Assembly (NCBI GenBank): GCA_964648105.1
Contig: CAZYMH010000001.1
Location: forward strand, 79,999-143,998
From: an uncultured Candidatus Saccharibacteria bacterium
Lineage (GTDB): Bacteria > Patescibacteriota > Saccharimonadia > Saccharimonadales > 2-12-FULL-41-12
Reading direction: 5' to 3'
DNA length: 64,000 bases
Shown: positions 5,453 to 40,856 of the stretch, piece after piece
How positions within the stretch are numbered: position 1 is the first letter of the stretch
Layout of the letters: each line of letters begins with the position of its first letter
Made by a program: the position numbers and the translations under genes
Notes under the pieces: model-generated
The model's database searches: none
What the model was told of the DNA's origin: nothing
Seen by the model: the letters and a program-made list of their open reading frames with translations, nothing else

Positions 5453-5839
5453 GGGGCTGAATTTTAAGCTCGACATTGGACTTTTACAACCTAGTTTGCA
5501 TACCGCTTATCAGCGTTATAGATAAAACCTTTTAAATGCAAGTTTGAAAGACCGCATTGCTAGCTTCTTCCAAGTTCCTAGCTTTGCACCAGCTGTAGCT
5601 TAATTTGCTTCAGCCGTAGCTAGCTCATACGCCAATAAGAGCTAACTACGCTATATCTTTGGCTCGATAATTTAGTGTCATCTCTGCACTTTAATATTTA
5701 AATTTTAGGAGATGCTTTTTTGAGTTTTTTGTTTGTTTATATAACTCAAAAACTAAGACCCCTAAAAACAAACTATGTATGTAGACGGCTAGGCACAGTA
5801 AACCGATGGACGTGGGGGCAGTACCCACCAGCTCCACCA
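5453..5839 (+). ncRNA. ssrA: transfer-messenger RNA (tmRNA)
   Basis: The 5' end GGGGCTGA...CTCGAC and the 3' end GGACGTGGGGGCAGTACCCACCAGCTCCACCA form the tRNA-Ala-like acceptor/T-arm. An internal candidate tag ORF ends ...SFAPAVA with TAA at 5601-5603. Length 387 nt. Confidence 0.85.
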
Positions 5840-6109: not shown

Positions 6110-7663
6110 GTGAGCGAAAAAATACTTAAATCTGAACAAGAAAATATTGAGTTATTGAATGATGCTTACGGCCCGAGACCCCTTGCTGTTGCACATCTAG
6201 ATGCTCAAAAACTTGCAGCTCAAGATTTTTACGAAGCTGACAGCCAAATTCATCATGTACCACCATCAGCTATTAGTGGTCATTACCCCCATAATTGGCT
6301 GTGGGACGGAGCCAAGAATGCCGAAGTTTATGCTCGATACGGTTATTTTATGTCAGCTAGTAATCAGGTTAAGTCAATTTTAGCTTCACAACATCCAAAT
6401 GGATTTATCCCAAATATGACTTTTGCAAACGATGGCCGAAAACTAGATATTGAACGACGAACATTTACTAACCCCCATAAATCGAGTGATTATTCACAGC
6501 CTGCAATAATTGCCGAAGCTGTCCGTGAAATCTATGAAGGCTGTAAAGCAAATGGACAAGAACTGGAAGGTAAGGACTTTTTAAGAGAAGTTTATCCTAG
6601 CCTAAAAATGTTCTATCAATATTTTTTACGAGAACGTCAAGTTAGTCCAGAAAACTACTTAATATTCAACATTCACCCTTGTGAAACAGGCCGTGACAGT
6701 GACCCAACTTTCAATTTTATTCAGTACAAAAAACCGTTTTGCAGCAGCGGCGAAGATACTCCAACTTATAAAATCGCGATTAATTCAGCTGCCGACTACA
6801 TTGGTAATGTCGCTTTGGGATTTCGCAACAAAAAACACGGTTGGCAAGCCGACCAAGCTCATCAAACCTTCAAATTTTGCGATGTTATGTTTAATTGTTT
6901 ATTTGCCAAAAATTTACGTGACTTGGCCTTAATTGCTGAAGAAAATAATGAGTTTAGTGATGCTATCGAATTCCATAATCATGCCGAAAAATTATCTCAT
7001 CAAATTCAGCAGAAAATGTATATATTTAACCCAGATGATGAAAAATTTGGGTTTTACGGCATAAACTTAACTGGATTTTCTGAATATGATATAGAAGTCT
7101 ACCAAAATAATAATTTAGAGCCTGGCGATCCAGTTTTTTTCAAATCAATTAGTAATTTATTCCCGCTAGTGCTTGACGGTTTAGAGACTACCAAACTGGC
7201 TCAAATTATTGATTTGATAGAAAAAGAATTTACCGATAATTTTATGATACCGACTGTCTCGACCAAAAGCCCCGATTACGACCCTAACTATCGTGGCAGA
7301 AACATGTGGCAAGGGCCAATTTGGTTGTGGATGAATGATTTTGTGATATCAGGAATCGCCGACCAATTATCTAGGCCAGACGTAAGTAATAATCGTGATT
7401 TAGTCCGTAAACTTTCTAATTTGCACACTAAATTAATGACTTCGTCTAAAGAGTTAGTGACATACAAAAATAACTCGCTACATGATCGTAGTTTTATAAT
7501 CAAAGCAGTTAACAAATTTATACCTCATGCACTGCGTTCGCAATCAAATTACGATGGACCATACCAAAATTTTGCCGAATTTTTCAGCCCCCAAACTGGT
7601 GTTGGCTATCGAACTAGACCATTTGCTGGATCATCAATTGCTTGTCGAAAGAGACAATATTAA
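6110..7663 (+). CDS. (alpha/alpha)6-barrel glycoside hydrolase, GH63/GH37-like (glucosidase / debranching-type)
   Basis: GTG start. Motifs WLWDGAKNA, QHPNGFIPN, ETGRDSDPTF and WQGPIWLWMNDF resemble the GH63/trehalase-like fold. Confidence 0.65.
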   Translation: MSEKILKSEQENIELLNDAYGPRPLAVAHLDAQKLAAQDFYEADSQIHHVPPSAISGHYPHNWLWDGAKNAEVYARYGYFMSASNQVKSILASQHPNGFIPNMTFANDGRKLDIERRTFTNPHKSSDYSQPAIIAEAVREIYEGCKANGQELEGKDFLREVYPSLKMFYQYFLRERQVSPENYLIFNIHPCETGRDSDPTFNFIQYKKPFCSSGEDTPTYKIAINSAADYIGNVALGFRNKKHGWQADQAHQTFKFCDVMFNCLFAKNLRDLALIAEENNEFSDAIEFHNHAEKLSHQIQQKMYIFNPDDEKFGFYGINLTGFSEYDIEVYQNNNLEPGDPVFFKSISNLFPLVLDGLETTKLAQIIDLIEKEFTDNFMIPTVSTKSPDYDPNYRGRNMWQGPIWLWMNDFVISGIADQLSRPDVSNNRDLVRKLSNLHTKLMTSSKELVTYKNNSLHDRSFIIKAVNKFIPHALRSQSNYDGPYQNFAEFFSPQTGVGYRTRPFAGSSIACRKRQY

Positions 7664-25342: not shown

Positions 25343-26887
25343 ATGTTTTCGATTGCATATATTCGAGTGTCTACAGAAGAGCAAGTATTTGGCACTAGCC
25401 TAGAGAGCCAGGAACAAGCGTGTATTGAGTATGCAAAGAAAAATGGCCTACGATTGAGCAAGGAACATATATTTCGAGAAGAAGGCGAATCAGCAAAGCT
25501 ATTAGACAGAACACAACTCCAAAACATGCTGACTTTTGTAAAGAATAACCGTGGCAAGATAGAGGGCTGTATAGTCTGGAAAGTTGATCGACTTGCCCGC
25601 AAGAGCGAATATCACCATGCGATCAAGGGCGTTCTACTCAAATATGGAGTAAAGCTTAAGTCAGTGACAGAGCCGATTGACGACAGCCCTATGGGCTCAT
25701 TAATGGAAGGTGTCTTAGCCGCATTTGCTCAATTTGATAACGATATTCGCACCACTCGTACAGTCACAGGTATGCGTGCCCGAACCATGCAAGGCGGGTG
25801 GCCTCACAGGGCAACATATGGTTACAGGAATAGTAAAACAGTTACGGGTATTAGTACGATCGAACCAGACGAAAACGCTGAAATCGCTAAAAAGTTTCTT
25901 GAGACTTTCTCTACTGGTGCGTACAACTTAAATCAAGCAATATTGCTAGCTAAAAAGCTAGGGATGATCTCAAAGTTAACTGGAAAACCTTATGGCTGGC
26001 AAGGTGTTAAGCATATTTTAAAAAACCCATTGTACGCAGGTTTCATAAGTTCAAGCTTCACAGACGGGTCTTATCTTAAGGGTGTCCATAAGCCTTTGAT
26101 TAAACCAGATATGCATTACAAGATATTGGCGATCATCGATAAACGATTCGAGAAAAACAGTAAACACGCAAAAGAAGACTGGCCACTAAGGGGAGGATTT
26201 TTGAAATGCTTTTACTGTAAACACCCTTTGACAGGTGGTGTACCTAAGGGTCGTGATAAGCACTATCCTCGATATAGCTGCATGAGATGCAGAAAGGTTG
26301 ACGGAGTCAAAGCTAATAGTATGAGTAGAGACAAAACGCACGAAGACTTTATGTCTCTCTTGGCTCAAATTACGCCACGAGAAGACGTTGCCCAAGGTTT
26401 TCGAGAGATAGTACTCCGAACATGGAATAACGACTACAAAGACGCCATAGGTCATCTAAAACGAATTGATTCACAGATCTCTACACTACAGCAGAAGAGA
26501 TCCAGGATTATTGATTTGTTTATTGAAGATAAGCTTTCAGATGAGATGAAGAATCAAAAGCTAAATGAGATCCAAGACAACCTAGCTGATCTTGAGTTCC
26601 AACGCTCAGAGTCTGGTAATGACGTAGCCGACAAGGAGCAAGTAATAGACAGTGCGGTCATGCTCCTAACTCAAGCTGATAAGTTTTGGAATCTGGGAAA
26701 CCTAGAGGTTAGGAAGCAGATCCAAGACATGGTATTTCCTGAAGGTCTGTACTATAGCTTTACTGACGGTTTTGGAACCGTAACTTTAAGCAAATCACAT
26801 CAGTTAATCGAAAAAGTCACCACGAATGGTGACTTAAATCCTAATTTGGTGATCTCACGGGGAATCGAACCCCGATTGCCAGGATGA
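25343..26887 (+). CDS. large serine recombinase (resolvase/invertase N-domain + recombinase + zinc-ribbon domains)
   Basis: N-terminal IAYIRVSTEEQ catalytic-Ser motif, VWKVDRLAR, a recombinase-domain region, a CFYCKH...CMRC zinc ribbon and a coiled-coil. The last 41 nt run antisense through tRNA-Glu. Confidence 0.85.
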   Translation: MFSIAYIRVSTEEQVFGTSLESQEQACIEYAKKNGLRLSKEHIFREEGESAKLLDRTQLQNMLTFVKNNRGKIEGCIVWKVDRLARKSEYHHAIKGVLLKYGVKLKSVTEPIDDSPMGSLMEGVLAAFAQFDNDIRTTRTVTGMRARTMQGGWPHRATYGYRNSKTVTGISTIEPDENAEIAKKFLETFSTGAYNLNQAILLAKKLGMISKLTGKPYGWQGVKHILKNPLYAGFISSSFTDGSYLKGVHKPLIKPDMHYKILAIIDKRFEKNSKHAKEDWPLRGGFLKCFYCKHPLTGGVPKGRDKHYPRYSCMRCRKVDGVKANSMSRDKTHEDFMSLLAQITPREDVAQGFREIVLRTWNNDYKDAIGHLKRIDSQISTLQQKRSRIIDLFIEDKLSDEMKNQKLNEIQDNLADLEFQRSESGNDVADKEQVIDSAVMLLTQADKFWNLGNLEVRKQIQDMVFPEGLYYSFTDGFGTVTLSKSHQLIEKVTTNGDLNPNLVISRGIEPRLPG

Positions 26888-26921
26888 AAACCTGGTGTCC
26901 TAACCGTTAGACGATGAGACC
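26847..26921 (-). tRNA. tRNA-Glu(UUC)
   Basis: Cloverleaf: GGTCTCA/TGAGATC acceptor, anticodon loop TTTTCAT, T-arm CGGGG-TTCGATT-CCCCG, encoded CCA. 75 nt. Confidence 0.9.
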
Positions 26922-27044: not shown

Positions 27045-27233
27045 TTAAAGTCCTAATTCTTTTGAATCTATACCAGCCTGGCGTGCAATACCACGTAGAG
27101 TACCTTTCTTTAATTCTTTATGAACAGGAATAACTGTAATTATCTTTTCCGTTTTAGCAATCTTCTTCATGACAACATGTGAACCTTTTTGTCTAGCAAA
27201 TTCGAAGCCGTGACTTTGCAAAATTTTCATCAC
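27045..27233 (-). CDS. hicA: type II toxin HicA (mRNA interferase)
   Basis: 62 aa. ILQSHGFEFARQKGSHVVMKK is the HicA/YcfA signature. Confidence 0.85.
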   Translation of the reverse strand: MMKILQSHGFEFARQKGSHVVMKKIAKTEKIITVIPVHKELKKGTLRGIARQAGIDSKELGL

Positions 27234-27253
27234 TTCTTTGCCACTCAGTAGAA

Positions 27254-27469
27254 TTAAAGACTCACAGTGGTAAGAAAAGATTGATGCGACAAATTGTCCT
27301 CTTGAGACTTATCATCCAATTCCTCAAAATATAGCTTTAAGGCTTCTCTTAAATTATCCACAGCCTCGTTAATATCACTTCCCTGACTAACAATTCCAGT
27401 ATCTGGATTGAGTGATACGAACATACCGTCTTCTTCGGTTAAAACTGCGTTAAAATATCGTTTTTGCAT
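27254..27469 (-). CDS. hicB: HicB-like antitoxin (UPF0150 fold)
   Basis: 71 aa. The pattern YFNAVLTEEDGMFVSLNPDTGIVSQGSDINEAVDNLREAL matches HicB. It lies 20 nt upstream of hicA. Confidence 0.75.
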   Translation of the reverse strand: MQKRYFNAVLTEEDGMFVSLNPDTGIVSQGSDINEAVDNLREALKLYFEELDDKSQEDNLSHQSFLTTVSL

Positions 27470-29381: not shown

Positions 29382-29419
29382 ACAAAACAAAAACCCCCCT
29401 ACCTACTTCGGTAGAGGGG
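29382..29419 (-). terminator. Rho-independent terminator
   Basis: On the minus strand, a CCCCTCTACC-gaag-TAGGTAGGGGGG hairpin followed by TTTTTGTTTTG. It lies downstream of gene 29503-30459. Confidence 0.7.
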
Positions 29420-29502
29420 TAATTATTTAGAGCGGTCAGTTTTTAGGATCCTATACCGTTCTTACACTCGGACTGTCCATTTATCGACAAAATTCAGTGG
29501 GT

Positions 29503-30459
29503 TTAAGCACGAATACGTCGAGAAAGAACGTTGTAACCTAGTGCAGCTACACTACTAACTACTATAAAGATAGCAACGACGCTACCTGCACCAGTTTCTG
29601 GCATTGCAGTTGGAGTAGTTGTTGTAGTTGTAGTTGGAGGAGTAACTACTGGTGGAGTAGTTGACTCAAACTTCACATTCTTAGCACATGCATCAGCAGT
29701 CTTCCACTCTGAATTACCATCAGCGTATTTTACCAATACGCTTGCAACAATTCGGTAAGAACCATCTTTTGCATATGTATGACTTGCAGTTTGGCTGTTT
29801 ACAACAGTACCGTCACCAAAGTCGATTTTGTAGTCAACAATAGTTGCATTGTTAACTGAACCACTTACAGTTACTTCAACCTTACGAGTTTTGTCGTAAG
29901 TTTTTACATCGGCTGCTTTACAAACACCAGTAGAAACTGGAGGTTGCTCTTGGCAAGTTACTTTAACTTTGAAGTTCACAAACTCTGTTGTAGAACCAGT
30001 TAATGTACCGATATTTACACCATTTACAATTGTATCTGGCAAAGTTTTAATAGCAGTTGCATTACCATCATAAAGAACAGTAGTACCGTTTATTAAACTT
30101 TGTGTTGCACCGTTAGGCAAACTAACACTTGCCGTGTCGCTTGTACCAGATGCACCGCCTAAATCAGTGGTAGCTGTAGCAGTACTAACACCGCCATTTG
30201 TTGGCAAAGTAGCCTTCAAAATAACGTTATTTAGTCCACCAAATTGGGTGTTGCTTAGTTGCATGCTGTATTTTAGTTCATCACCACAGCTTGCAGATAC
30301 GCTGTTAGAGTATGAACCACCTTTAGTTACATTTTTAACTAGGTAGTTATCACCACCAGCTAATTGGCCTGGGCTACCAGCCAAGGCAGCACCAGAAAAT
30401 GCTAAAACCACAGTATTAAGTACAGCACTGGTCATAGCTAAAGTTTTTAGATTTTTCAT
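29503..30459 (-). CDS. sortase-anchored surface protein with PKD domain (MPETG sorting signal)
   Basis: Signal peptide, PKD motif IDFGDGT...HTYAKDGSY, T/P linker, then a C-terminal MPETG + hydrophobic helix + RRIRA tail. SD AAGGAGA. Confidence 0.8.
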   Translation of the reverse strand: MKNLKTLAMTSAVLNTVVLAFSGAALAGSPGQLAGGDNYLVKNVTKGGSYSNSVSASCGDELKYSMQLSNTQFGGLNNVILKATLPTNGGVSTATATTDLGGASGTSDTASVSLPNGATQSLINGTTVLYDGNATAIKTLPDTIVNGVNIGTLTGSTTEFVNFKVKVTCQEQPPVSTGVCKAADVKTYDKTRKVEVTVSGSVNNATIVDYKIDFGDGTVVNSQTASHTYAKDGSYRIVASVLVKYADGNSEWKTADACAKNVKFESTTPPVVTPPTTTTTTTPTAMPETGAGSVVAIFIVVSSVAALGYNVLSRRIRA

Positions 30460-30568
30460 AACTTATCTCCTTATATAAAATTTAGATATTATTTAGTCTA
30501 GTTTTAGTTATTAAATTATTTATTACTTAACAAACTAGATAGTTACTGGCTTTCAATTTATTTCAGTT

Positions 30569-30688
30569 GGGGGTTGTTACGACTAGCTGATTTTGTTCGA
30601 GAGCGGATGCTCAAGATTAAAATCAGCTAGTCGCCGAGGGGAGTTGGGAGCGTGTCTTGGGTTTAACCAAGCTTGCGTCGACCAACTC
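30569..30688. repeat. structured hairpin module A (homologous to 36593-36739)
   Basis: GGGGGT, then a perfect 15-nt inverted repeat CGACTAGCTGATTTT (30580-30594) / AAAATCAGCTAGTCG (30619-30633), then a nested hairpin GAGTTGG...CCAACTC (30641-30688). Confidence 0.7.
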
Positions 30689-30834
30689 GCCTCACAACCG
30701 ACTATTACTTCAATGGAATCACTTCCTTTCTTTGCTCACAATGTGTGGGCGAAAATGGAATATTGTAGAGTCATAAAGACTCTGCTAGTCCAATGGAACC
30801 ACCCTACCTTTCAAAATCGATTTTTGAAATTACC

Positions 30835-32025
30835 TCACTCGGGACGAGTGGGGTATGTGATCGCGAACGTCTGCGACTTGATGTCGCTGGCGTTGCCGAG
30901 CGAGGCGGTCATGGTGACCATCATGCTGGTGGGCCGAAGCGGGTCCGAGGGTGCGTAAAAGATCACGCAGTGGTCAGAGTTCCCGGCCGGAAGGCTGGAA
31001 AAGGTGACCTCAGCGGTCGGCACGTTGCTATCGCAACGGCTAACCGCTCCGATACCCGGGTCGATCGTGAGTGACCCGTTGGGGTCGCTCGCGTTCACCT
31101 TGATAGTGAAAGGCCCACTCGACTTCCCCGAAGGGATGTCGTTAAGAGTCGTGGAAGCCACGATCTTGATCGACTTCGCCGAAGGGGGCGGATTGACTGG
31201 CGGGGTCGTGGTCGTCTGCGTCGAGCAGATGTTGACAACGTTTCCGTTGTTCTCCTTGTAGACCACCTTCACCGTGCCATCTGCCATGGTCATGGTGACC
31301 ATCGAACAGTTGGCATTGACTTGGACAGTGGTCTGGTTGATGACCGTCGTGTTGTTGTTGACGATCGTGCAGACCGAGCTGTTGTTCCAGGTCCCACCCT
31401 TGGCCTCACAGTCCTGACGAGCGGTCTGTGTCGTGTCGACACTGGCCGTCTGAGAGGACTGGTTACCCTGACAGGCTGCTCCGCTGTTAGCGGGATTGAC
31501 CTGTCCGTTCACGCACGAAGATGCGGGCGTGGGCGTGGGTTGCGGAGTCGGAACGACTCGCGGCTTAGGCTTGGGCCGCTTCGGGACGCGAACGGGAATT
31601 CGTCCGGTCCGAAGGTTACCACAGGTGGTCGCATAGGACATCTTGACGATGCCGTCGGCGGTGTCGGAAGCGTAGGCCCAGATGACCTCACCTTTGCGGT
31701 AAGTGGTCATCCCGACAGGCACAAAACGTCCACCCTTGCAGGTAAAGTTCTGAACTCGGGTTGTCCGAGCCACGGTCACCTTAACAAGGTGCTTTCGCAC
31801 CAGGTCACTGGCAGACCCGTCGAGACGGACCTTGTTGTGGGTCGGCTTCACAACGTCATCCATAACGCCGTGATTCGTCCATCCCTGGACGACTGCCTTG
31901 ACAGTGTTGCCACCGCCACACGCACCGGCCGCCGAGGCGGTTGAGCTGTTCACGAGCCCGAAGGCCATGAACGAACTTGCGATCGCCCCAGAGGCGATCA
32001 GAAAGTGCTTCATATTACGAGCCAT
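30835..32025 (-). CDS. G+C-rich secreted hypothetical protein (foreign composition)
   Basis: 396 aa with AAGGAGG 5 nt upstream of the ATG. Signal peptide MKHFLIASGAIASSFMAFGLV..ASA, Pro-rich linkers (KRPKPKPRVVPTPQPTPTP, TTTTPPVNPPP) and Cys pairs. Shadow ORFs in several frames are typical of high-GC DNA. Confidence 0.75.
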   Translation of the reverse strand: MARNMKHFLIASGAIASSFMAFGLVNSSTASAAGACGGGNTVKAVVQGWTNHGVMDDVVKPTHNKVRLDGSASDLVRKHLVKVTVARTTRVQNFTCKGGRFVPVGMTTYRKGEVIWAYASDTADGIVKMSYATTCGNLRTGRIPVRVPKRPKPKPRVVPTPQPTPTPASSCVNGQVNPANSGAACQGNQSSQTASVDTTQTARQDCEAKGGTWNNSSVCTIVNNNTTVINQTTVQVNANCSMVTMTMADGTVKVVYKENNGNVVNICSTQTTTTPPVNPPPSAKSIKIVASTTLNDIPSGKSSGPFTIKVNASDPNGSLTIDPGIGAVSRCDSNVPTAEVTFSSLPAGNSDHCVIFYAPSDPLRPTSMMVTMTASLGNASDIKSQTFAITYPTRPE

Positions 32026-32334
32026 GACTACCTCCTTTTAGGAGAGATTGGCCATATACGTGGTCATGACGTCACGTACAGACACATTACCCTGATTGGG
32101 CGATGCACACTACTAGCAGTCTAATACTAGCAAAGTGCATCGTCCAAGATGTATTGTCTAAACGTGCTTAGTCATGTTTTGTGATTCATTAAAAATAGTC
32201 GATTGTTATATTAAGGCTTTCTATCGACGAACGAGCTACTAACTACTAGTGTAACTAGAGTAAAAGCTCAAGTTCGGATCAAAAACCCATAACTATCTAG
32301 TTTAAGTACACCATCCCAACTCTCCCAAAAAATC

Positions 32335-32363
32335 CTGTTTCCAAGGACCGTCCTTGGAAACAG
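32335..32363 (+). repeat. REP-like perfect palindrome, copy 1
   Basis: CTGTTTCCAAGGAC-C-GTCCTTGGAAACAG (14-nt arms). Confidence 0.9.
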
Positions 32364-32577
32364 CTAGTGAAAAAGCTATGTAATGGTGTGTTTTTGCCTA
32401 ATTGTTAAGCTGCTACCACCCACCTCGTTTGACAGATCCACCTCTGTTGCCACTATTCGAGCGATACTGTTGATATATTAGCACAAGCGTGCGTTTTTGT
32501 CAATAGTATTATACTAAACTTCCCCTCTCTCAAAAAACATGTTCTTAAACCCCCCACACTCCCCTCAATCCTTTGCT

Positions 32578-32596
32578 TCCAAGGACCGTCCTTGGA
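32578..32596 (+). repeat. REP-like palindrome, copy 2 (shorter arms)
   Basis: TCCAAGGAC-C-GTCCTTGGA, 31 nt upstream of the RAYT start. The flanking C-rich leader resembles that of copy 1. Confidence 0.85.
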
Positions 32597-32626
32597 TACA
32601 AGTTCCACACATGATATTATTCAACT

Positions 32627-33271
32627 ATGCCAAGTCGTAACCGAATAAAAGCTTATTCATCAGACAGCTACTACCACATTTATAATAGAGGTGTAAATAA
32701 ACAAAAAATCTTCATAGATGATGAGGATCATCGAGTTTTCCTAAATTTATTCAAACGTTATCTAAGTAAAGCCCCAGTAAAAGACAATAAGGGTAGAGAG
32801 TACGATTGGCTCTATGAACAACTAAAGCTGCTAAGTTATTGCATCATGCCAAACCACTTCCATTTGTTTATTTTTCAGAACGAATCAACAGCCATGGAGC
32901 GGCTTACCCGTCGTGTATTTACATCTTACACTCAATATTTTAATAAAAAATATCATCGAGTCGGGCCACTTTTCCAGAGCCGATATAAAGCATCATTGAT
33001 CCTATCTGAATCATATCTACTCCATATCTCACGCTACATTCATCGAAATCCAAAAGATTATAGCAACTACAAATATTCTAGCTATAAATATTTTTTAGGT
33101 GTCCATGATTGTCCAGAGTGGCTAAATGCCCAAGCATTACTCGATATGTTCGATAACGATACCTCCCACTATCAAGCTTTTGTAGAGGACTATAAGAATT
33201 ATAAAGAAACATTAAACGAAATCTTGCCAGAACTAGCCAACACACATAACCTACAATCTACAAATCCTTAA
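32627..33271 (+). CDS. IS200-like Y1 HUH transposase, REP-associated tyrosine transposase (RAYT) type
   Basis: YHIYNRG, HUH motif MPNHFHLFI and catalytic-Tyr region SRYIHRNP. 214 aa, bracketed by REP-like palindromes. Confidence 0.8.
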   Translation: MPSRNRIKAYSSDSYYHIYNRGVNKQKIFIDDEDHRVFLNLFKRYLSKAPVKDNKGREYDWLYEQLKLLSYCIMPNHFHLFIFQNESTAMERLTRRVFTSYTQYFNKKYHRVGPLFQSRYKASLILSESYLLHISRYIHRNPKDYSNYKYSSYKYFLGVHDCPEWLNAQALLDMFDNDTSHYQAFVEDYKNYKETLNEILPELANTHNLQSTNP

Positions 33272-33318
33272 ATATATAATACTCCTGCAACTACACTCCT
33301 AAACTACGGGCTTTGTAC

Positions 33319-33343
33319 GTTTCCAAGGACGGTCCTTGGAAAC
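33319..33343 (-). repeat. REP-like palindrome, copy 3 (inverted relative to copies 1-2)
   Basis: GTTTCCAAGGAC-G-GTCCTTGGAAAC. The central G (versus C in copies 1-2) gives the opposite orientation. It lies 48 nt downstream of the RAYT stop. Confidence 0.9.
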
Positions 33344-33442
33344 TATTTCTATTGTCGGGTACAAGAAACAAAAAGAATCCTAAATAAATGAGTATTTAGG
33401 ATTCTTAATTAATATTTATTTTATGTTGACTATTGCTGGACT

Positions 33443-35125
33443 TTAGTAATATCGCCTTGAGGCAAAGACATAGTATCCTACGCCGCTGGCTACGCTAACA
33501 ATCACGAAGACTGCTGCCATGCTACCAGGGCCTGTGTCTGGCATTACACCACTACTAACTACCTGTGTAGTCGGTGTGTAGGTATTAGTCGAGTTGTAGT
33601 AAGTAACTTTTTCGGTGATGACTGTTTTGCAGTCAGGGCTGTCAATTGGCAAGTTTTCTTTACCTGCAACTGGGCAATAAATGACCGATTTTTCGAATTT
33701 GATGGTTTTTTTGCAATCATCTGAGGTTTTGTCGACCTCTGTACCGTTCGCAAGCTTAACCCTGACCGTCCCAACAATCATATAACTGCCGTCTTTGCTA
33801 TAGGCATGAGTGGCCGTTTGATCTGTAGATTTGGCTCCGTCACCCCAGTCGATCTGATAACCAACAATCTGAGCGTTATCGACACTTCCAGTTAGCACTG
33901 CCCTAACTTCTCGTTTGTTCGAATCTACCCCTGTTAAGTTCAATAGGCTACATTTGCCATCAGATACAGGTGGTGGTGGCGTTTCGTAAACTACTGTTTT
34001 GGTGCAAGCCTCGGAAGCATGAGACACTTCTTGACCATTTGCTAGTGTAAAGAAAGCAGTAGCTTTAACTACATATGTGCCGTCTGCTTGGTATTCATGA
34101 GTTTGGCCGACAGGAGTAGCGGTAGTGGTATTGGCTGAGCCATCACCCCAGTTAATGACAGCATTTTTGAAGGTTGCTCCGTTGGCTGTAGTTGTCTCAA
34201 ATTTAGTTACTTTTAGTACTCGACCAGTTTGCTTGGTCACTTCGAGCAAAGTACACTTGTAGTCGGCTGGTGGCGGTGGTGGCGTCTCTATTACAATCGT
34301 TTTTTTGCAAACTTCGCTCGATTTGTCGACCACCGTTCCGTTAGCTAATTTTACCTTGACTGTAGCCGTTACAGTATAAGTACCTGCCTGAGCATAGGTG
34401 TGGTTAGCAGTTTGAGTAGCTGAAGTTGTGCCATCACCCCAGTTTATTACATAGCCGACGATTTCGGCATTAGTTACCGAACCAGATACAGTTGCCGTAA
34501 CTTGCCTACCTTGTTGGCTTACAACTTGTACAGCTAAGCCAGTGCAAGCTCCATCGGACACTGGTGGTGGCGGTGTATCACAGTCTACTTTTGCCTGAAA
34601 GACCACAAACCGAATTTCGTTCAACGATACTCCTACACTACCGATATTAACTCCTGAGCCAATTACTCCATCAGGTAAGCTAGATATCACACCACTATTG
34701 GTATTAAGCAGCTCGGTTGAGCCAGCAATATAATTAAGCTTTTTGGCACTAGATAGGTTAAGTGTAGCCTGTGCAGTTGTGGTGGCTGGTTGCATGTTAG
34801 AACCACTGATAGTCGCTGTAGAGGTGTGAGTCGCACTAACAGTACTTGGCAAGCTAGCCCGAACATTAACATTACCTACTACTCCTGGGCCAGGGTTATG
34901 CAAGCGAATCTTATACTGAACTGTTTCACATGGGTCGGCGGTTTGGACACTGGCGAAACCACTGTTTTTTGTGACATTTTTTATTCGGTATATATCACCG
35001 CCTTCAATTTGGCCTTCGCCGATGGCAAACACTAGTCCGCTTGATAAGCCTGTTAACATACCTACGACTAGGCCGAAAATTGACGCCGTCCGCACCGTTT
35101 TTGCAATTTGTAGTCTTAATCTCAT
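33443..35125 (-). CDS. sortase-anchored surface protein with three PKD-like repeats (MPDTG sorting signal)
   Basis: Signal peptide and an N-domain paralogous to 29503-30459. Three repeats with (I)NWGDG...H.Y...G.Y motifs. C-terminal MPDTG + TM + SRRYY. Confidence 0.8.
   Translation of the reverse strand: MRLRLQIAKTVRTASIFGLVVGMLTGLSSGLVFAIGEGQIEGGDIYRIKNVTKNSGFASVQTADPCETVQYKIRLHNPGPGVVGNVNVRASLPSTVSATHTSTATISGSNMQPATTTAQATLNLSSAKKLNYIAGSTELLNTNSGVISSLPDGVIGSGVNIGSVGVSLNEIRFVVFQAKVDCDTPPPPVSDGACTGLAVQVVSQQGRQVTATVSGSVTNAEIVGYVINWGDGTTSATQTANHTYAQAGTYTVTATVKVKLANGTVVDKSSEVCKKTIVIETPPPPPADYKCTLLEVTKQTGRVLKVTKFETTTANGATFKNAVINWGDGSANTTTATPVGQTHEYQADGTYVVKATAFFTLANGQEVSHASEACTKTVVYETPPPPVSDGKCSLLNLTGVDSNKREVRAVLTGSVDNAQIVGYQIDWGDGAKSTDQTATHAYSKDGSYMIVGTVRVKLANGTEVDKTSDDCKKTIKFEKSVIYCPVAGKENLPIDSPDCKTVITEKVTYYNSTNTYTPTTQVVSSGVMPDTGPGSMAAVFVIVSVASGVGYYVFASRRYY
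33686..34576 (-). repeat. three tandem ~300-nt coding repeats (PKD modules)
   Basis: Each unit starts with PPPP(V/A)(S/D)(D/Y)(G/K)xC and ends with CxKT(I/V)... Boundaries are derived from protein repeat positions and are approximate. Confidence 0.6.
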
Positions 35126-35145
35126 TATTTTCTCCTTAAATTCCC

Positions 35146-36354
35146 TTAAAATGCCCCTGGATTGCCTGGATTATCAGATACAACTGGCCAGTTTATTGTG
35201 TCTTGAGCTTGATTACCCGCTTTGTCGGTAACTACACCAGTTGCAGTTGCCTCTCCGACGACTGTGCCAGCTTTGGCATCTTTGCAATATTCGCCTGTTT
35301 CATCGCCAGCGTAGACATCTGAGACGGCATTTATATCACCACTAAAAGTTATGGTTGGCATGCCTTTTATGTCACCTAGTCCATCTGGATCACTAACATA
35401 TCCACAGATCTGTAAAATACCATTAACTAACATATGCTGAGGTTTAACCATGTCAATTACTGGTGGAGCATTTTTGGGTGGAGTTGGTGGTTTAGGATTC
35501 TCTGGTGGAGTTGGCGGTGGTGGCGAAGGTGGCAGTGGCTTATCAACACACGTTACTTTGGCATATGCTGATGAACTCATTTTGTCTCTGAGGCTAATTA
35601 GTACGGAATTTTTGGTGTCAACATTGACATTCCCCATAAAAGCTCGGTATTCAGCAACGTTTTTTAGGACATTCTTGAGCGAAACTGATTGGTCACCAAC
35701 ACCGCGTGCCGCAGCTTCTGACGAACCAGCGTTACTAACGCAGTTTACTCGGGCAGTAGCCTCACTATGAAGCGTGAATGAGGTGTTAAAAGATGAAACT
35801 TCGACTACTCTACCCTTAATAATTGGAGCTTTGATTACTCGCCTAGCAGGCTTTTTATTAATCATTGGGATGACTACATTATGGCAATCTCTACCAGAGA
35901 AACCACCGCCTCTTTTAACATAACCGGTTGGTGAGTCTTTGTCTTTGCAGGCATAGACATTGCTGTCCATGCGTCGGACTTTTTGACCATATTCGTTTAC
36001 GTAGTAGTTCCAAGCTTTTTTATACCACCTGCAAGCTTTGGCTTCATGGCCAGGCTGATTAGTTTCGTTAATCCGAGTGTCGGCTACAACTGTCGCTTTA
36101 CCATATAATATCTCATCTAAATCAATGTTTTTACTAACCGTGTTTTGGGCTTCGGCAGTCATTGCTACCTCTGTTGGTCCGCTTAAACTAACGGACTTCT
36201 CCGTAGCCGTCGCTACGTTAGGACCAACAAGTGTTGCGGCGACACAAACTGCACCAATTAATCTGGCTTTTGATGAGCCAATCGCCTCGAATATCTGATG
36301 TGATAATTGTTCGTTTGGTTGTGTTTGTATTGGCATTTCTGGTGTTTTTGTCAT
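35146..36354 (-). CDS. secreted hypothetical protein with Pro-rich linker and C-terminal Ig-like domain
   Basis: 402 aa. SD AAGGAGGGG. Signal/anchor ARLIGAVCVAATLVGPNVATA, linker PLPPSPPPPTPPENPKPPTPP, and a C-domain with SDPDG. Confidence 0.65.
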   Translation of the reverse strand: MTKTPEMPIQTQPNEQLSHQIFEAIGSSKARLIGAVCVAATLVGPNVATATEKSVSLSGPTEVAMTAEAQNTVSKNIDLDEILYGKATVVADTRINETNQPGHEAKACRWYKKAWNYYVNEYGQKVRRMDSNVYACKDKDSPTGYVKRGGGFSGRDCHNVVIPMINKKPARRVIKAPIIKGRVVEVSSFNTSFTLHSEATARVNCVSNAGSSEAAARGVGDQSVSLKNVLKNVAEYRAFMGNVNVDTKNSVLISLRDKMSSSAYAKVTCVDKPLPPSPPPPTPPENPKPPTPPKNAPPVIDMVKPQHMLVNGILQICGYVSDPDGLGDIKGMPTITFSGDINAVSDVYAGDETGEYCKDAKAGTVVGEATATGVVTDKAGNQAQDTINWPVVSDNPGNPGAF

Positions 36355-36592
36355 TGTACCCCTCCTTAGTTAAATTATTAGATGGTCTAATATATTCGTT
36401 AAAGTTTAATAACACCTAACCCAGTACTCTTTGCCTCACCCCAGCTAGTCTAAATATATGTACAATACTTATTGTACTCCTATGCAAATTTAATACAAAT
36501 TGTATAAATTGTATAATATACTACATTTTCACGCTACTTTATGCTTATGCTTATGGTTTTTTGTAGCTAAATAGTCACAAATTTTAAATTAT

Positions 36593-36739
36593 GGGGGTAC
36601 GACGGCTGATTCAAATAATAGGAGCTAAAAAGCTCAGGGGACTATTAAAGTGAATCAGCCGATCGATGGGGCGAAATAGCGGGCAAATGAGGAGTATTAC
36701 CAAGAAGGTAATTAGTCTCATTGAGCCATATTACGCCCC
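36593..36739. repeat. structured hairpin module B (homologous to 30569-30688)
   Basis: GGGGGT, then CGACGGCTGATTCA (36600-36613) / TGAATCAGCCGATCG (36651-36665) with one bulge, then a nested hairpin GGGGCG...AATGAG...CTCATT...CGCCCC (36668-36739). Confidence 0.7.
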
Positions 36740-36759
36740 AGCAATCGACCTACTCTAGG

Positions 36760-37668
36760 TCAGCCAGCCACGGGTGTGGGCTGGATGACCTTGGTGGGTA
36801 CCCGCACAACGACGCAAGCGTCGTCGCGTCGGGTGAGGCCCACCCCTGCGACGGCCACCACGTTGCAGAGCTTGCCGCTCCGCACCGTGGTGGTCTGATA
36901 GACGAACCGCTTGCTTGCCCCAGGGGCAAGCGAGACGTTCGCAGTCAAACGGCCGTTCTTGAGCGAGGTCCCCGAAGGGAGCTTGCCCGATAGGACCATG
37001 CCCGAGGGCATGACGTCGCTCAAGCGAAGCTTGAGCGTCACGCCACCAGTGTTCTTCACCACAACGGTGAAGATCACCTTGCCACCCTTGCGAGTAGACT
37101 TCTTGTTCGCGTCCTTGCGAACGACGAAGTTGGCCACAGCGGGCTGCTCCACCGTTACGGTGGGCGGCGGGTTCATGACAACCGTCGGTGGTGGCACCAC
37201 CGGGGTGGCCGGGGTGGCCGTGACGGTCGGCACGGTCGTGGGAGGCTTCGTCTTGTCGACGCAGCCACTCGGCACCGCAGGGACCGACACCATTTTGGTG
37301 TCGACACCCGATCGGCCGTCGGCCCAACGGAGGACGAACTTGGCAGTTCCTCCCCTGTAGGTTGACGATACCGAAACCATCCACATGGCATCCTTGCCAC
37401 CTACGGCCGCAAGGCGGCTGCCTTGCGACTTGCCGTCGAGGAGAGCCTCGACGGTCATGTTGTGCGTGGGACCGTAGGCAGGCTGCTTTTCGCGGTTACC
37501 CGCGGAAAGCGTGACCTGGCCACTGGCCTTGCCATTTGCGTCGTAGACGCAAATGGTCTTGGCTGACTGGACCGTGGTCCAGGCAGCGGCTGGCGATGCC
37601 ACAATAGCACCACCAACGAGAGATGTGGCCACTGACGTGGCTAGGGCGATGTTCCTCAGTCGAGGCAC
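36760..37668 (-). CDS. G+C-rich secreted protein with DUF11/CARDB-like repeat domain (foreign composition)
   Basis: GTG start with AAAGGAGA upstream. Signal peptide ALATSVATSLVGGAIVASPAAA. C-terminal pattern GGKVIFTVVVKNTGGVTLKLRLSDVMPSGM...LAPGASKRFVY...NVVAV is typical of DUF11. Multiple shadow ORFs. Confidence 0.75.
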   Translation of the reverse strand: MPRLRNIALATSVATSLVGGAIVASPAAAWTTVQSAKTICVYDANGKASGQVTLSAGNREKQPAYGPTHNMTVEALLDGKSQGSRLAAVGGKDAMWMVSVSSTYRGGTAKFVLRWADGRSGVDTKMVSVPAVPSGCVDKTKPPTTVPTVTATPATPVVPPPTVVMNPPPTVTVEQPAVANFVVRKDANKKSTRKGGKVIFTVVVKNTGGVTLKLRLSDVMPSGMVLSGKLPSGTSLKNGRLTANVSLAPGASKRFVYQTTTVRSGKLCNVVAVAGVGLTRRDDACVVVRVPTKVIQPTPVAG

Positions 37669-38057
37669 TTCATCTCCTTTACTGGAGTTGACGAATAAGT
37701 ACTATGAATACTACTGGTACTGCAAACTTCTGACTAATTACATAATCAAAACTTTGCAATACCTTAGTACAAAATCACTTAAACTTATGCCTTCACTAAA
37801 CCTACCGAATTTAAAAAGATCGATTGCTATATCTAGGTAATAAAACGAAACAAAACTAATTGTCTCTAGTATTAAAACCTATGACTATTTAGTTAATTAC
37901 ATGTAAAAGTTCAACTTACTACTCAAATAATCTGAGACAAAAATAGAGCAGTAATTACAGATATAATTTTATCACACATAGGCATATTTGTCAATACGCT
38001 TATGTAGTGGCTTTACTGACCTGCAATTACTGCTCATAAAGTGATATAATATAGCAA

Positions 38058-40856
38058 ATGATATTCAAAAATACCGACGTAAACCCACCCGATAAAGGTG
38101 CTGTTCTGCTCTTGCAAGTACCACGTAATAACGAGAAAAAAGAGCTAGCTACTGAGCAAGTTTTGGCGGCCATACATGGGCTACTTACCAAGGCCGAAAC
38201 AATGAGCTTTTTTGCTAGTACAGTTCACGAGAAGATTAGTTTCGAGATTGCTACCTTAAATGGCCGAATCTGCTTCTTTATCTGGACACCCGAACACCTC
38301 AAACAATATGTCCAAGATCAAGTTTATGCCCAATACCCTAGCGTTCACATTTCGGAGGTAGAAGATTACGCTCTGCATAACCAAAATTCGGTCAATATGG
38401 CCTGTGAGCTAAAATTAGCCGCTCCAGACCCTTTGCCTATCAAAACCTTCCCAAGCTTCGAGGTCGACCCATTGGCAGGTGTAACGGCCACTCTAGCTCA
38501 GCTAGACGAAGGCGAAAATGCATGGGTACAAGTGGTCGCTCGGCCCGCCCAGTCTGGCTGGTACAAAAAAAGCGAGCGTTACGCCCAAAATATCAGAGGT
38601 GGAGCTAAGAATAATGGTGCTTACACTGGGCTATGGGGAGCTTTATCGGCCCCACCTGAGCAAAAAAATACCACGACAACTCTTGCTGAGCATGAATCGG
38701 TCCGAGCCAGAGCCGCCGAAGAAAAAAGCCATAAACTGGCCTATCAAACCACTATTCGCATAATTTATAGCGGTAATTCGTCTGAATCTCAAGCCAGAAT
38801 GCGTTTACAATCGGTTATTGCTTCATTTAAACAGTTCAACTCAACATACCTAAACGGTTTTGTAGCTGGCAAAATGACTCAGCGGCACGAGGATATAGTT
38901 GCCTACCAAAACCGAAATTTTAGCCGCAAAACTATGATTCTGAACATCGAAGAGCTAGCGAGCGTCTACCATCTGCCACACACCAATGTTGAGACCCCTA
39001 ATATATTATGGGCCAATGCCACGACCGCCGAGCCACCAGCCAATTTACCAATCAAACTAACCGAAGAAGTTAGCCCAATCGCGGTGACTAATTTTCGGGG
39101 CCATAATACACTATTTGGCTTAACCAGAAACGATCGCGGTAGGCATGTGTATATTATTGGTCAAACTGGCACTGGTAAATCGGGTTTACTCGAGCTTCTT
39201 ACTATCTGTGACATCGATACCAACCATGGATTTGCGGTTATCGACCCGCACGGTGATTATGCTTTGAGTGTGCTACAAAGTATCCCAGAAAGTCGTATGA
39301 ACGACGTAATTTACTTCAACCCCGCCGATAGTCAATTTCCGATCCCCTTTAACCCTTTGGAAGTATCCGACCCTAAGCTCAAAAGTCATACTTGCTCAGA
39401 GCTAATTGGCGTCTTAAAACGAATGTTTGATTCTTGGGGTCCACGGCTAGAATATATCTTAAGGTACAGTATTTTGGCGTTGCTTGATTACCCCGAAGCT
39501 ACCATGCTCGACATCACCAAAATTTTAACCGACAAAAAGTTTCGTAACGATGTCTTGCAGTACGTCAATGACCCAGTTGTCAAGCAGTTTTGGACGGTCG
39601 AATTTGCTAGCTGGAACGATAAATTTGCTGCCGAAGCTGTCGCCCCAGTACTCAATAAAATCGGAGCCTTTACGGCTAACCCTTTGGTACGTAACATTGT
39701 CGGCCAGCCACACGGAAGTTTTAATATCCGCCAAATCATGGACGAAGGCAAAATCTTAATTGTCAATTTGTCGCGAGGTTTGATTGGCGAGGACAACGCC
39801 GCCCTTCTTGGCTCGCTGATGGTTACTAAAATCCAGATGGCCGCCATGTCGCGGGCCGATATCCCCAAAGAAGCTCGTAAGCCATTTTACCTATATGTTG
39901 ACGAATTCCAGAACTTCGCCACCGATAGTTTTGCAACGATTTTGTCAGAAGCACGTAAATATTCGCTTAATTTGACTGTTGCCAACCAATATACCGCCCA
40001 AATGATGCAAAGTGTTCGCGATGCGGTATTTGGCAACGTTGGGACGATCGTTAGCTTCCGTACAAGTGCCGACGATGCCCGTAGTATGCTCAAATATTTC
40101 GAGCCAAAATTTACCGATTACGACTTAGTTCACATGCATAATCGCCATTTTGTGGTTAGCATGACTATCGAGGGCGAAAAAGTTCAAGCCTTTTCGGCCG
40201 TTACCAAAGATTTAACTCCTGTAAACTTTGATAACACTGCAGAGATTATCGCCAAAAGTCGTGAACTTTATGCCACCGATATCGAATCAGTCGAAAAATA
40301 CATTGATAGTCGTTATCACCTCAAACCAACTGTTGGCCAAAAACCTAGTTTTTCTAGCAAAAGACCTTCTAGGCCTAAACCACCTGCCCCTATCGAAGCC
40401 GTAGAGCCTAGCCTTGAACAAACTCCGCCCCCACCTAGCTCCCCAGAAACTAATTTTGAGAAATCTCCCGAAAAATCTTTCGAAACTCTCGATGACAAAC
40501 ACGAAATTACCAAATCAAGCTCCAAACAATCTGTTATTTCGGCTCTAGCTAAACTCGCCGAAAATGCCACCACCAAACCTAGGCGTAAACGCAAACGAAC
40601 CCGAAAAAACAAAAATAAAGTAACATCTGTCGACTCATCACAGCAGCCTCAAAATATCAGTCCTCCCAAATCTGATCTGCCAAAAGCCAAGCCAACTATC
40701 AAAAGTGAGCCTAAAATTGAAGCCTCGAAGCCTCAAAAACAATCACTAGCAGAACCAAAATCTCAAACACCTAAACCAGTTGCCAATAAATCACCTAAAA
40801 AAGACGATATGGTAGACTTCAGCGGCAACGACGAAATCGTAATCAAACTCCGCTAA
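38058..40856 (+). CDS. type IV secretion coupling protein-like (TraD/VirD4/HerA-FtsK superfamily) ATPase with long K/P/S-rich tail
   Basis: Walker A IIGQTGTGKSGL, Walker B FYLYVDEFQNF, and a ~330-aa N-terminal domain of unknown function. The last ~190 aa are low-complexity basic/proline-rich. Confidence 0.65.
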   Translation: MIFKNTDVNPPDKGAVLLLQVPRNNEKKELATEQVLAAIHGLLTKAETMSFFASTVHEKISFEIATLNGRICFFIWTPEHLKQYVQDQVYAQYPSVHISEVEDYALHNQNSVNMACELKLAAPDPLPIKTFPSFEVDPLAGVTATLAQLDEGENAWVQVVARPAQSGWYKKSERYAQNIRGGAKNNGAYTGLWGALSAPPEQKNTTTTLAEHESVRARAAEEKSHKLAYQTTIRIIYSGNSSESQARMRLQSVIASFKQFNSTYLNGFVAGKMTQRHEDIVAYQNRNFSRKTMILNIEELASVYHLPHTNVETPNILWANATTAEPPANLPIKLTEEVSPIAVTNFRGHNTLFGLTRNDRGRHVYIIGQTGTGKSGLLELLTICDIDTNHGFAVIDPHGDYALSVLQSIPESRMNDVIYFNPADSQFPIPFNPLEVSDPKLKSHTCSELIGVLKRMFDSWGPRLEYILRYSILALLDYPEATMLDITKILTDKKFRNDVLQYVNDPVVKQFWTVEFASWNDKFAAEAVAPVLNKIGAFTANPLVRNIVGQPHGSFNIRQIMDEGKILIVNLSRGLIGEDNAALLGSLMVTKIQMAAMSRADIPKEARKPFYLYVDEFQNFATDSFATILSEARKYSLNLTVANQYTAQMMQSVRDAVFGNVGTIVSFRTSADDARSMLKYFEPKFTDYDLVHMHNRHFVVSMTIEGEKVQAFSAVTKDLTPVNFDNTAEIIAKSRELYATDIESVEKYIDSRYHLKPTVGQKPSFSSKRPSRPKPPAPIEAVEPSLEQTPPPPSSPETNFEKSPEKSFETLDDKHEITKSSSKQSVISALAKLAENATTKPRRKRKRTRKNKNKVTSVDSSQQPQNISPPKSDLPKAKPTIKSEPKIEASKPQKQSLAEPKSQTPKPVANKSPKKDDMVDFSGNDEIVIKLR

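Follow-up and report, generated by a model that had tools for sequence, protein, structure and literature searches.

A 64,000-nt stretch of DNA from an uncultured Candidatus Saccharibacteria bacterium (contig CAZYMH010000001.1; hereafter the window) carries two G+C-rich genes, g1 and g2, each followed by a module of long hairpins and enclosed by a pair of inverted repeats (IRs), with a promoter outside the upstream repeat. The layout is previously undescribed and is conserved in Saccharibacteria. On the simplest reading each unit would be one operon, in the order promoter, 5' IR, leader, G+C-rich gene, hairpins hp2 and hp1, 3' IR, second gene and terminator. The module most probably belongs to the mRNA, as a set of intercistronic stem-loops that would protect a 3' end or terminate leakily. 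The IR pair may be an RNase III-type stem, a tentative proposal that we hold below even. The account as a whole, a structured 3' untranslated or intercistronic segment of a conserved two-gene operon together with a long-range IR stem, is in our judgement an even call. The element lies outside every described RNA family. Both cis-regulatory RNA and mRNA processing are almost unexplored in Saccharibacteria and other bacteria of the Candidate Phyla Radiation.

Loci compared

Saccharibacteria contigs were fetched for their g1 homologues and are identified by L numbers; L008 represents a second strain carrying g2. Eight units are compared, namely units 1 and 2 of the window (with modules A and B) and those of L012, L016, L018, L019, L023 and L026, while a ninth copy of hp1 is the variant B' in L008. 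The neighbouring gene for a type-IV coupling protein (T4CP, 38058-40856) has homologues with Saccharimonadales/Saccharibacteria annotation, and the MPETG/MPDTG sorting motifs of the PKD proteins are consistent with a Saccharibacteria assignment. L012, L013 and L014 differ by only 0-1 bases, which makes within-species comparison uninformative, and in loci L009-L011, which have T4CP homologues, neither a G+C-rich unit nor an IR was found.

Hairpin modules A and B

The initial annotation, made from the letters of the window, had described two modules, and both are present where it placed them (A, 30569-30699; B, 36593-36749), each folding into two long hairpins. On the plus strand the minimum free energy (MFE) is -72.7 kcal/mol for module A (z = -9.2) and -64.4 kcal/mol for module B (z = -7.5), on the minus strand z is -8.7 and -8.9, and none of 200 shuffles folds as stably as either module. 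Their shared pattern, ACGAC-N1-2-GCTGATT-N15-45-AATCAGC, has exactly two matches in the 64 kb, where 100 shuffles give an expectation of 0, and once the two G+C-rich open reading frames (ORFs) are set aside no 70-nt fold of the window is more stable than the hp1 hairpins. The compensatory change reported between the modules, TT:AA in one and CA:TG in the other, is real. Both genes lie on the minus strand, so that the strand drawn originally was the antisense of a 3' untranslated region (UTR). Both modules do lie downstream of the G+C-rich genes, as first placed, but module B precedes a 402-aa gene of unknown function and not directly a PKD protein gene.

Conservation of hp1

hp1 is kept downstream of every g1 homologue (nine copies in eight units) at a constant position between the G+C-rich ORF and the 3' IR, 10-45 nt from the latter. 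In L012, L016, L018, L019, L023 and L026 the g1 homologue is followed, after 200-300 nt, by a PKD-type gene on the same strand, and the intergenic order in the gene sense is one or more variable hairpins, hp1, the tail (UUUU)AC(A)CCC, a spacer of 10-45 nt, a conserved motif and the ribosome-binding site of the next gene. The copies usually carry an apical GAGC-loop-GCUCC mini-stem. The two-hairpin form of A and B recurs in L026, L018 and L019, and L012 and L016 have hp1 alone. Variant B' differs from module B of the window at the apex of hp1, with pairing retained.

All nine copies are stable (z from -5.9 to -9.4). Their lower stems share a mean identity of only 37%, yet 72 of 72 base-anchored cells are paired, against 54% in column shuffles and 17-43% with slid partners, and compensatory double changes are seen in all eight stem columns, with 18 extra pair types. 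RNAalifold, run on a plain unsupervised MAFFT alignment, also found this helix, and 12 of its 15 pairs were compensatory. The original proposal that structure is conserved beyond sequence, which rested on A and B, thus holds far more strongly over nine copies, and the further copies suggested as a check are found, with covariation, after the g1 homologues of related contigs. A covariance model built from the unsupervised alignment and run over 176 kb returned only known copies, with no third copy in the window, and failed to recover the divergent hp1 of L023.

At gathering thresholds, an Rfam scan of the whole window called only a transfer-messenger RNA (tmRNA) and six tRNAs and left the modules without a match, in keeping with the earlier failure to recognise a known family; for 30300-38100 at E up to 1 it gave just two sub-threshold chance matches, both to eukaryotic long non-coding RNA models. 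Searches for GCTGATT-N20-48-AATCAGCYRRTCG-N2-4-GGGG in JGI metagenomes, in IMG/VR and in a genome set with one member per GTDB species yielded chance matches only, which fell in coding DNA of high-GC organisms and in a phage; because the stems covary, the exact pattern is too specific for public scans. Literature searches turned up nothing relevant on Saccharibacteria with inverted repeats, phase variation or GC-rich genes.

As to strand, hp1 is slightly stabler on the sense strand in six of the nine copies (summed free energies of -271.7 kcal/mol sense versus -254.0 antisense), with eight G.U pairs sense versus four antisense. An antisense or independent small RNA on the plus strand, starting at the GGGGG as originally drawn, would suit the GGGGG that opens both modules and the window copies, which fold as well or better on that strand. 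We think such an RNA very improbable: the relatives favour the sense strand, no promoter-like site lies at a constant upstream distance (the spacing from IR to GGG is 10-35 nt), and no terminator follows on the plus strand.

Inverted repeats

A motif of 26-28 nt, with the consensus TTAAAAACCMRTGWCTATCTAGTTTG reading outward, encloses each unit as an inverted pair. Equivalent pairs occur in all seven other loci, where the upstream neighbour varies (T4CP in either orientation, LepA or other genes), and in 236 kb of related DNA the IR core was found only around G+C-rich units and always as an outward-facing pair. The copies evolve in concert. Unit-specific variants are common to both copies of a pair (TAAC in unit 1, TATTTAG in unit 2, CTACC in L018, GCTTG in L012 and GTCT in L016), and the true pairings give the highest identity of 40,320 permutations (p = 2.5e-5), A versus B of one genome included. 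Differences between copies are G.U-compatible 22 times in the sense versus 5 times in the antisense transcript, and mismatches number 29 versus 47. The IR-IR duplex has a free energy (dG) of -23.5 to -34.6 kcal/mol and forms part of the global MFE structure of the predicted transcript in seven of eight units.

No target-site duplications were found, nor any direct repeats outside the IRs. We dropped the idea that the IRs are transposon ends, there being no such duplications and the downstream neighbour being constant, and also that of a shared promoter for the PKD and T4CP genes, since in L016, L019, L023 and L026 the upstream copy faces the 3' end of a co-oriented gene.

The tract 36652-38400, which takes in g2 with its leader and 340 nt at the start of the T4CP gene, is 100% identical to L008 1890-3640, while the flanks are merely 70-85% identical (84% for the T4CP protein). 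Its left end falls inside hp1 of module B and its other end inside the T4CP gene; it is a recent recombination tract. Three short contigs with G+C-rich ORFs (L001, L017 and L025) begin or stop in or beside the inverted repeats, L001 covering almost precisely the stretch between the two inner IR edges; heterogeneity of the repeats could account for these breaks, as could simple effects of coverage.

Such observations could also be read as the mark of DNA recombination. A site-specific recombinase acting at the 26-28 bp IRs would invert or exchange a promoterless G+C-rich segment behind a fixed external promoter, a scheme that we consider unlikely; equally unlikely is the role that the hairpin module would have in it, as an accessory site or as a block to transcription in the inverted state. 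The IR is strongly conserved at both ends, inverted, and the two copies of a unit evolve in concert; the promoter is invariably external to it, as in some invertible switches; the unrelated ORFs g1 and g2 use one framework in one genome; the identical tract with its divergent flanks has one end within hp1; some short contigs end at or near IRs; and the window has a large serine recombinase gene at a distance of ~5 kb. However, a single orientation relative to the promoter and downstream gene was found in all eight units and in the L012-type contigs shown, although this is weak evidence, since assemblies report the majority state only. Around the units of L012, L019 and L023 there is no recombinase within 4-10 kb, the unit-specific variants occur throughout the IR instead of being confined to one side of a crossover, and the sense-strand G.U bias is unexpected for a DNA site. 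The hairpins have no U-tract terminator on the antisense strand, and the far end of the identical tract, inside the T4CP gene, is as in ordinary homologous recombination.

A dedicated Saccharibacteria cassette system, in which a fixed promoter and framework (IR, leader, hairpin module, IR) serve interchangeable, host-like, high-GC3 (G+C at third codon positions), secreted adhesin-like genes that are inverted or swapped at the DNA level, seems to us quite improbable, and we are just as doubtful of the module as part of its recombination or expression-insulation machinery. If the IRs were DNA sites, they would make a surface-variation cassette system of a new kind for an episymbiont. The cassette boundary or recombination site first proposed survives in modified form only: the boundaries would be the IR pairs, which had not been noticed. 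The inner part of the IR, ATCAAAAACC, resembles the half-site of Hin hix, and the other half-site gives no match; we take this as a lead, not as evidence.

Promoters, leaders and terminators

Outside the upstream IR, at a distance of 69-170 nt, each of the eight units has a perfect TTGACA -35 box with a spacer of 16-17 nt, and in seven the -10 is extended (TG). In the 32-72 nt (209 nt in unit 2) that separate the 3' IR from the following ATG, no comparable promoter was found in any of the eight, just two marginal 9/12 matches in unit 2 and L012; the promoter region originally supposed between module and next gene is thus not convincing. Because the promoter lies outside the upstream IR and none comparable precedes the second gene, both IR copies and the module should share one transcript. 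Two complementary segments predicted in one transcript could form a duplex of about 20 bp or more, as required of a processing stem. The leaders, of 150-350 nt, are packed with stable hairpins in all units, and one hairpin, GGACGAUGC...GCAUCGCCC (window ~32100-32150, minus strand; L012 9555-9605; L016), is found 60-100 nt upstream of the g1-type start.

Downstream, hp1 is followed by U4-5 and ACCC in five of the nine copies (L008, L012, L016, L019 and L026) and by GUCGUA, with no U run, in A and B; L018 and L023 likewise lack a U run. An intrinsic terminator should have a U-rich tract of about 7-9 nt straight after its G+C-rich stem-loop, and real terminators in these genomes have long U tracts. 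A terminator scan did not call hp1 and called canonical terminators after PKD318 and PKD560, and such terminators, a hairpin plus a U tract, stand after the second gene in the window, L018 and L019. Since U4-5 with ACCC occurs in five of nine copies only, A and B have no U tract and canonical terminators follow the second gene, hp1 fits an internal leaky element.

It is rather doubtful that nothing more than a terminator and an operator is present, with hp1 a weak intrinsic terminator and the IR copies two operators of one regulator, unrelated to the hairpins. The U4-5 runs would agree with this, as would the 5-2-5 dyad of the IR core, AACTA-NN-TAGTT, which is typical of dimeric regulators. 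But A, B, L018 and L023 are without the U tract of real terminators in these genomes, and a strong terminator would silence a second gene that has no convincing promoter of its own. A single regulator would also leave unexplained both the unit-specific co-variation of the IRs within one genome and the fixed outward orientation of an asymmetric 26-28 nt repeat.

Two side observations concern neighbouring transcripts. The motif CUGACCGCUC is present in the 3' UTR of the second, PKD-type gene at every locus, before the canonical terminator, and a hairpin often precedes it. At the T4CP gene (window 38040-38060) an extended -10, TGATATAAT, ends 7 nt before the ATG, a spacing that suggests a leaderless mRNA.

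Coordinates of features in the window and in related loci are collected in Table 1.

Table 1. Features of the two window units and corresponding sites in related contigs
Feature	Coordinates	Strand	Remarks
Unit 1 promoter, sigma-70-like	32475-32503	-	TTGACA-17-TGcTAATAT; outside upstream IR
Unit 1 5' IR copy	32277-32304	-	plus strand GATCAAAAACCCATAACTATCTAGTTTA
Unit 1 structured 5' leader	32026-32276	-	holds conserved hairpin GGACGAUGC...GCAUCGCCC
g1 ORF	30835-32025	-	396 aa; GC 0.594, GC3 0.74; signal peptide, C-terminal Ig-like/CLIPPER-like beta-sandwich
Unit 1 extra small 3'-UTR hairpins	30700-30834	-	between g1 stop codon and module A
Module A closing helix	30572-30577 / 30694-30699		GGTTGT/ACAACC
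Module A hairpin hp2	30636-30693	-	G+C-rich; sequence varies between lineages
Module A hairpin hp1	30579-30634	-	16 bp lower stem, apical GAGC-loop-GCUC mini-stem; z -9.4
Module A hp1 tail			sense strand GUCGUAACAACCCCC
Module A GGGGG	30569-30573		plus strand layout
Unit 1 3' IR copy	30531-30558	-	sense strand AAUUGAAAGCCAGUAACUAUCUAGUUUG
Unit 1 downstream cistron	29503-30459	-	PKD-domain protein with MPETG sorting motif
Unit 1 canonical terminator	29393-29420		after PKD cistron
Unit 2 promoter, sigma-70-like	37966-37994	-	TTGACA-17-TAAAAT with TG; 11/12 consensus positions; outside upstream IR
Unit 2 5' IR copy	37869-37896	-	plus strand GTATTAAAACCTATGACTATTTAGTTAA
g2 ORF	36760-37668	-	302 aa; GC 0.636, GC3 0.76; signal peptide, DUF11/CLIPPER domain
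Module B conserved motif	36742-36749		CAATCGAC
Module B hairpin hp2	36668-36739	-	GGGGCG...CGCCCC; similar base helix in L026
Module B hairpin hp1	36600-36665	-	z -8.6
Module B GGGGG	36593-36597		plus strand layout
Unit 2 3' IR copy	36563-36590	-	
Palindrome GTTTCCAAGGACCGTCCTTGGAAAC, three copies	32335-32363, 32574-32600, 33318-33344		
Slot ORFs in relatives	L012 8265-9470; L016 4001-5239; L018 650-1927; L019 4001-5311; L023 4001-5428; L026 1993-3282		
CUGACCGCUC sites	window 29420-29500; L012 ~6950-7070; L016 6424-6520; L018 2950-2975; L019 6647-6675; L023 6649-6740		

Proposed operon RNA

Transcription would start at the strong sigma-70-type promoter and run through the 5' IR, the leader, the G+C-rich ORF, hp2, hp1 and the 3' IR into the second gene. 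In the mRNA hp1, together with hp2 where present, would act as a stem-loop that protects the 3' end, terminates leakily or does both, and would set the ratio of first to second cistron; the predicted position of hp1 (stable, inside an operon and before a promoterless cistron) is that of an intercistronic or 3' stabiliser. The IR copies would pair across ~1.7 kb in a duplex of 24-26 bp with a conserved internal mismatch, serving as an RNase III-type processing stem or as a 5'-3' clamp, and after cleavage the G+C-rich cistron would retain hp1/hp2 at its 3' side and the leader hairpins at its 5' side. What the analysis shows is the architecture, hp1 as conserved and covarying, the concerted evolution of the IRs and where promoters and canonical terminators lie; that these elements act as RNA, and what they do, we infer. 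Among the options listed in the initial annotation, a shared 3' UTR or terminator and an unannotated structured RNA fit best, given the covariation of hp1 and the absence of an Rfam match.

Several points weigh against this account. The strand of the transcript, its ends and any cleavage are all predicted from sequence. The lower stems of hp1 are almost pure Watson-Crick palindromes, which fold equally on the antisense strand or as DNA, and the whole 3' region of the window copies folds better antisense (-115.6 versus -99.2 and -75.1 versus -73.8 kcal/mol). The base-anchored alignment behind the 72 paired cells was built with the structure in mind. AT-rich spacers may conceal weak promoters of the second gene. 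The IR sequence is conserved far beyond the needs of pairing, and its 15-nt core is identical in L019, L023 and L026, which points to a sequence-specific protein, possibly a DNA recombinase or a regulator. The G.U bias of the IRs is partly non-independent, one position being common to five units, and may stem from strand-biased mutation. The gene for RNase III (rnc) is absent from the ~64 kb window, which is uninformative, the window being only part of the genome.

G+C-rich genes

The window has ~39% G+C, and its two G+C-rich islands coincide exactly with two minus-strand ORFs, g1 and g2, whose neighbours have a GC3 of 0.22-0.43. Profiled finely, the excess runs from start codon to stop codon and no further, and in L012 a coarser profile rises and falls around the ORF in a similar way. 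An indexed search gave eight clusters of g1 homologues and an exhaustive one 99 representative clusters. Members of the family vary in their N-terminal part and share a conserved C-terminal beta-sandwich of ~115 aa, for which alone the structure prediction of g1 is confident and whose fold matches are generic Ig-like. g2 has no homologue in the protein database except one identical copy.

Positional homologues of g1 occur in at least seven other Saccharibacteria contigs, and all are G+C-rich relative to their own contig (GC 0.52-0.65 versus 0.39-0.49; GC3 0.56-0.82). The same GC3 range covers every ORF in this slot, g1 and g2 included, in genomes of about 40-48% G+C. Because the g1 homologues share this composition and stand within leaders and 3' UTRs conserved between genomes, high GC3 is a conserved trait of the gene family or slot and not a sign of recent horizontal transfer; the same homologues, amid native-like leaders and 3' UTRs, contradict any reading of the foreign composition first described for these genes as recent acquisition. 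With 99 representative clusters, a family whose anomalous composition is its own trait calls for caution in composition-based calls of horizontal gene transfer. The locus is a compact conserved architecture, and the proteins encoded in it, which are secreted or anchored to the cell wall, probably serve in attachment to the host.

Neighbouring mobile-element features

Beside unit 1 is a Y1/IS200-like transposase gene (PF01797; 32627-33271, plus strand), flanked by a 25-27 nt palindrome, GTTTCCAAGGACCGTCCTTGGAAAC; gene and palindromes look like a RAYT/REP-like system, which the related loci lack. The third palindrome copy lies in the g1 leader, between the g1 promoter and the 5' IR, and is followed on the minus strand by the terminator-like GATTTTTTGG, so that this copy could attenuate g1.

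This adjacency, together with a gene of odd composition bracketed by hairpins and inverted repeats, could suggest that the module is a mobile-element end, whether an IS200/IS605 or REP/RAYT hairpin, a miniature inverted-repeat transposable element with cargo or an integron attC site. We give that origin little credence, and the mobile-element end of the initial annotation is unlikely for the same reasons. The Y1 gene has its own unrelated palindrome (GTTTCCAAGGAC...), and seven other loci have modules and IRs without a Y1 gene. Target-site duplications are lacking, and each locus has a single unit, or two in the case of the 64 kb window, with an unvarying gene downstream. Neither R''/R' integron core sites nor a cassette array or an integrase were seen, and collections of plasmids, phages and viral contigs held no match to the element.

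Further away, the large serine recombinase gene (Resolvase and Recombinase domains; 25343-26887, plus strand) overlaps the 3' side of tRNA-Glu (26847-26921, minus strand) and is followed by a HicA/HicB toxin-antitoxin pair (27045-27469, minus strand); these probably mark an element integrated at tRNA-Glu. Beside the PKD gene of L012, a tRNA-Glu and then a partial duplicate of its 3' part (6570-6640, 6790-6850) are present, and the duplicate resembles an att-site remnant. The tmRNA gene of the window (5453-5839; Rfam RF00023, 73.6 bits) was missed by ARAGORN.

Comparison with known systems

Integron attC cassettes resemble the units in having an ORF of atypical composition with an imperfect palindrome at its 3' end. 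The modules differ in forming two separate hairpins instead of one bottom-strand fold with extrahelical bases, and by inspection there are no RYYYAAC/GTTRRRY core sites at the helix bases, no array and no adjacent tyrosine recombinase or integrase. Unlike the members of integron arrays, the units are separated by native genes and have their own long leader and promoter context.

Invertons are IR-flanked DNA segments flipped by invertases, such as the hsdS invertons (PMC7672463). The units share with them IRs of ~20-30 bp, a segment of ~1.3-1.9 kb, a fixed outside promoter, surface-protein cargo and concerted evolution of the repeats, but differ in that no second orientation was seen in eight units, no invertase is linked and the wobble-compatible differences point to RNA.

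Stabilising stem-loops at intercistronic or 3' positions include the hairpins of the Rhodobacter puf operon, the REP hairpins of malE-malF and the 3' 'positive retroregulator' of cry1Aa. Like these, the hairpins here are very stable and stand right after one cistron of a predicted operon, with no efficient U tract and a promoterless second cistron next, and the expected effect would be to shield the RNA from 3' exonucleases and to let the two cistrons be expressed at different levels. Unlike them, hp1 is positionally conserved, with a conserved GAGC-loop-GCUCC apex and (UUUU)ACCC tail, and is tied to a flanking inverted repeat rather than being a dispersed repeat.

Pairing between 5' and 3' UTRs is known in bacterial mRNAs, as in icaR of Staphylococcus aureus (PMC3868564) and hbs of Bacillus subtilis (PMC5737220). 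There, as proposed here, a leader pairs with a 3' UTR within one mRNA, and the pairing governs how stable the mRNA is, how it is translated or whether ribonucleases reach it. The known interactions are short and involve the ribosome-binding region or the 5' end, whereas the duplex predicted here has 24-26 bp, lies 150-350 nt upstream of the start codon and is intercistronic, not terminal.

In rRNA operons, RNase III stems bracket the 16S and 23S rRNA (PMC6582327). As there, the complements of the IR pair are 1.5-3 kb apart and are predicted to form a duplex of at least 20 bp with internal mismatches, the enclosed segment being looped out. Here the bracketed segment is a protein-coding cistron, cleavage is a prediction and the IR is conserved beyond the needs of pairing. 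If the IRs are an RNA processing stem, they would be an mRNA counterpart of the rRNA maturation stems.

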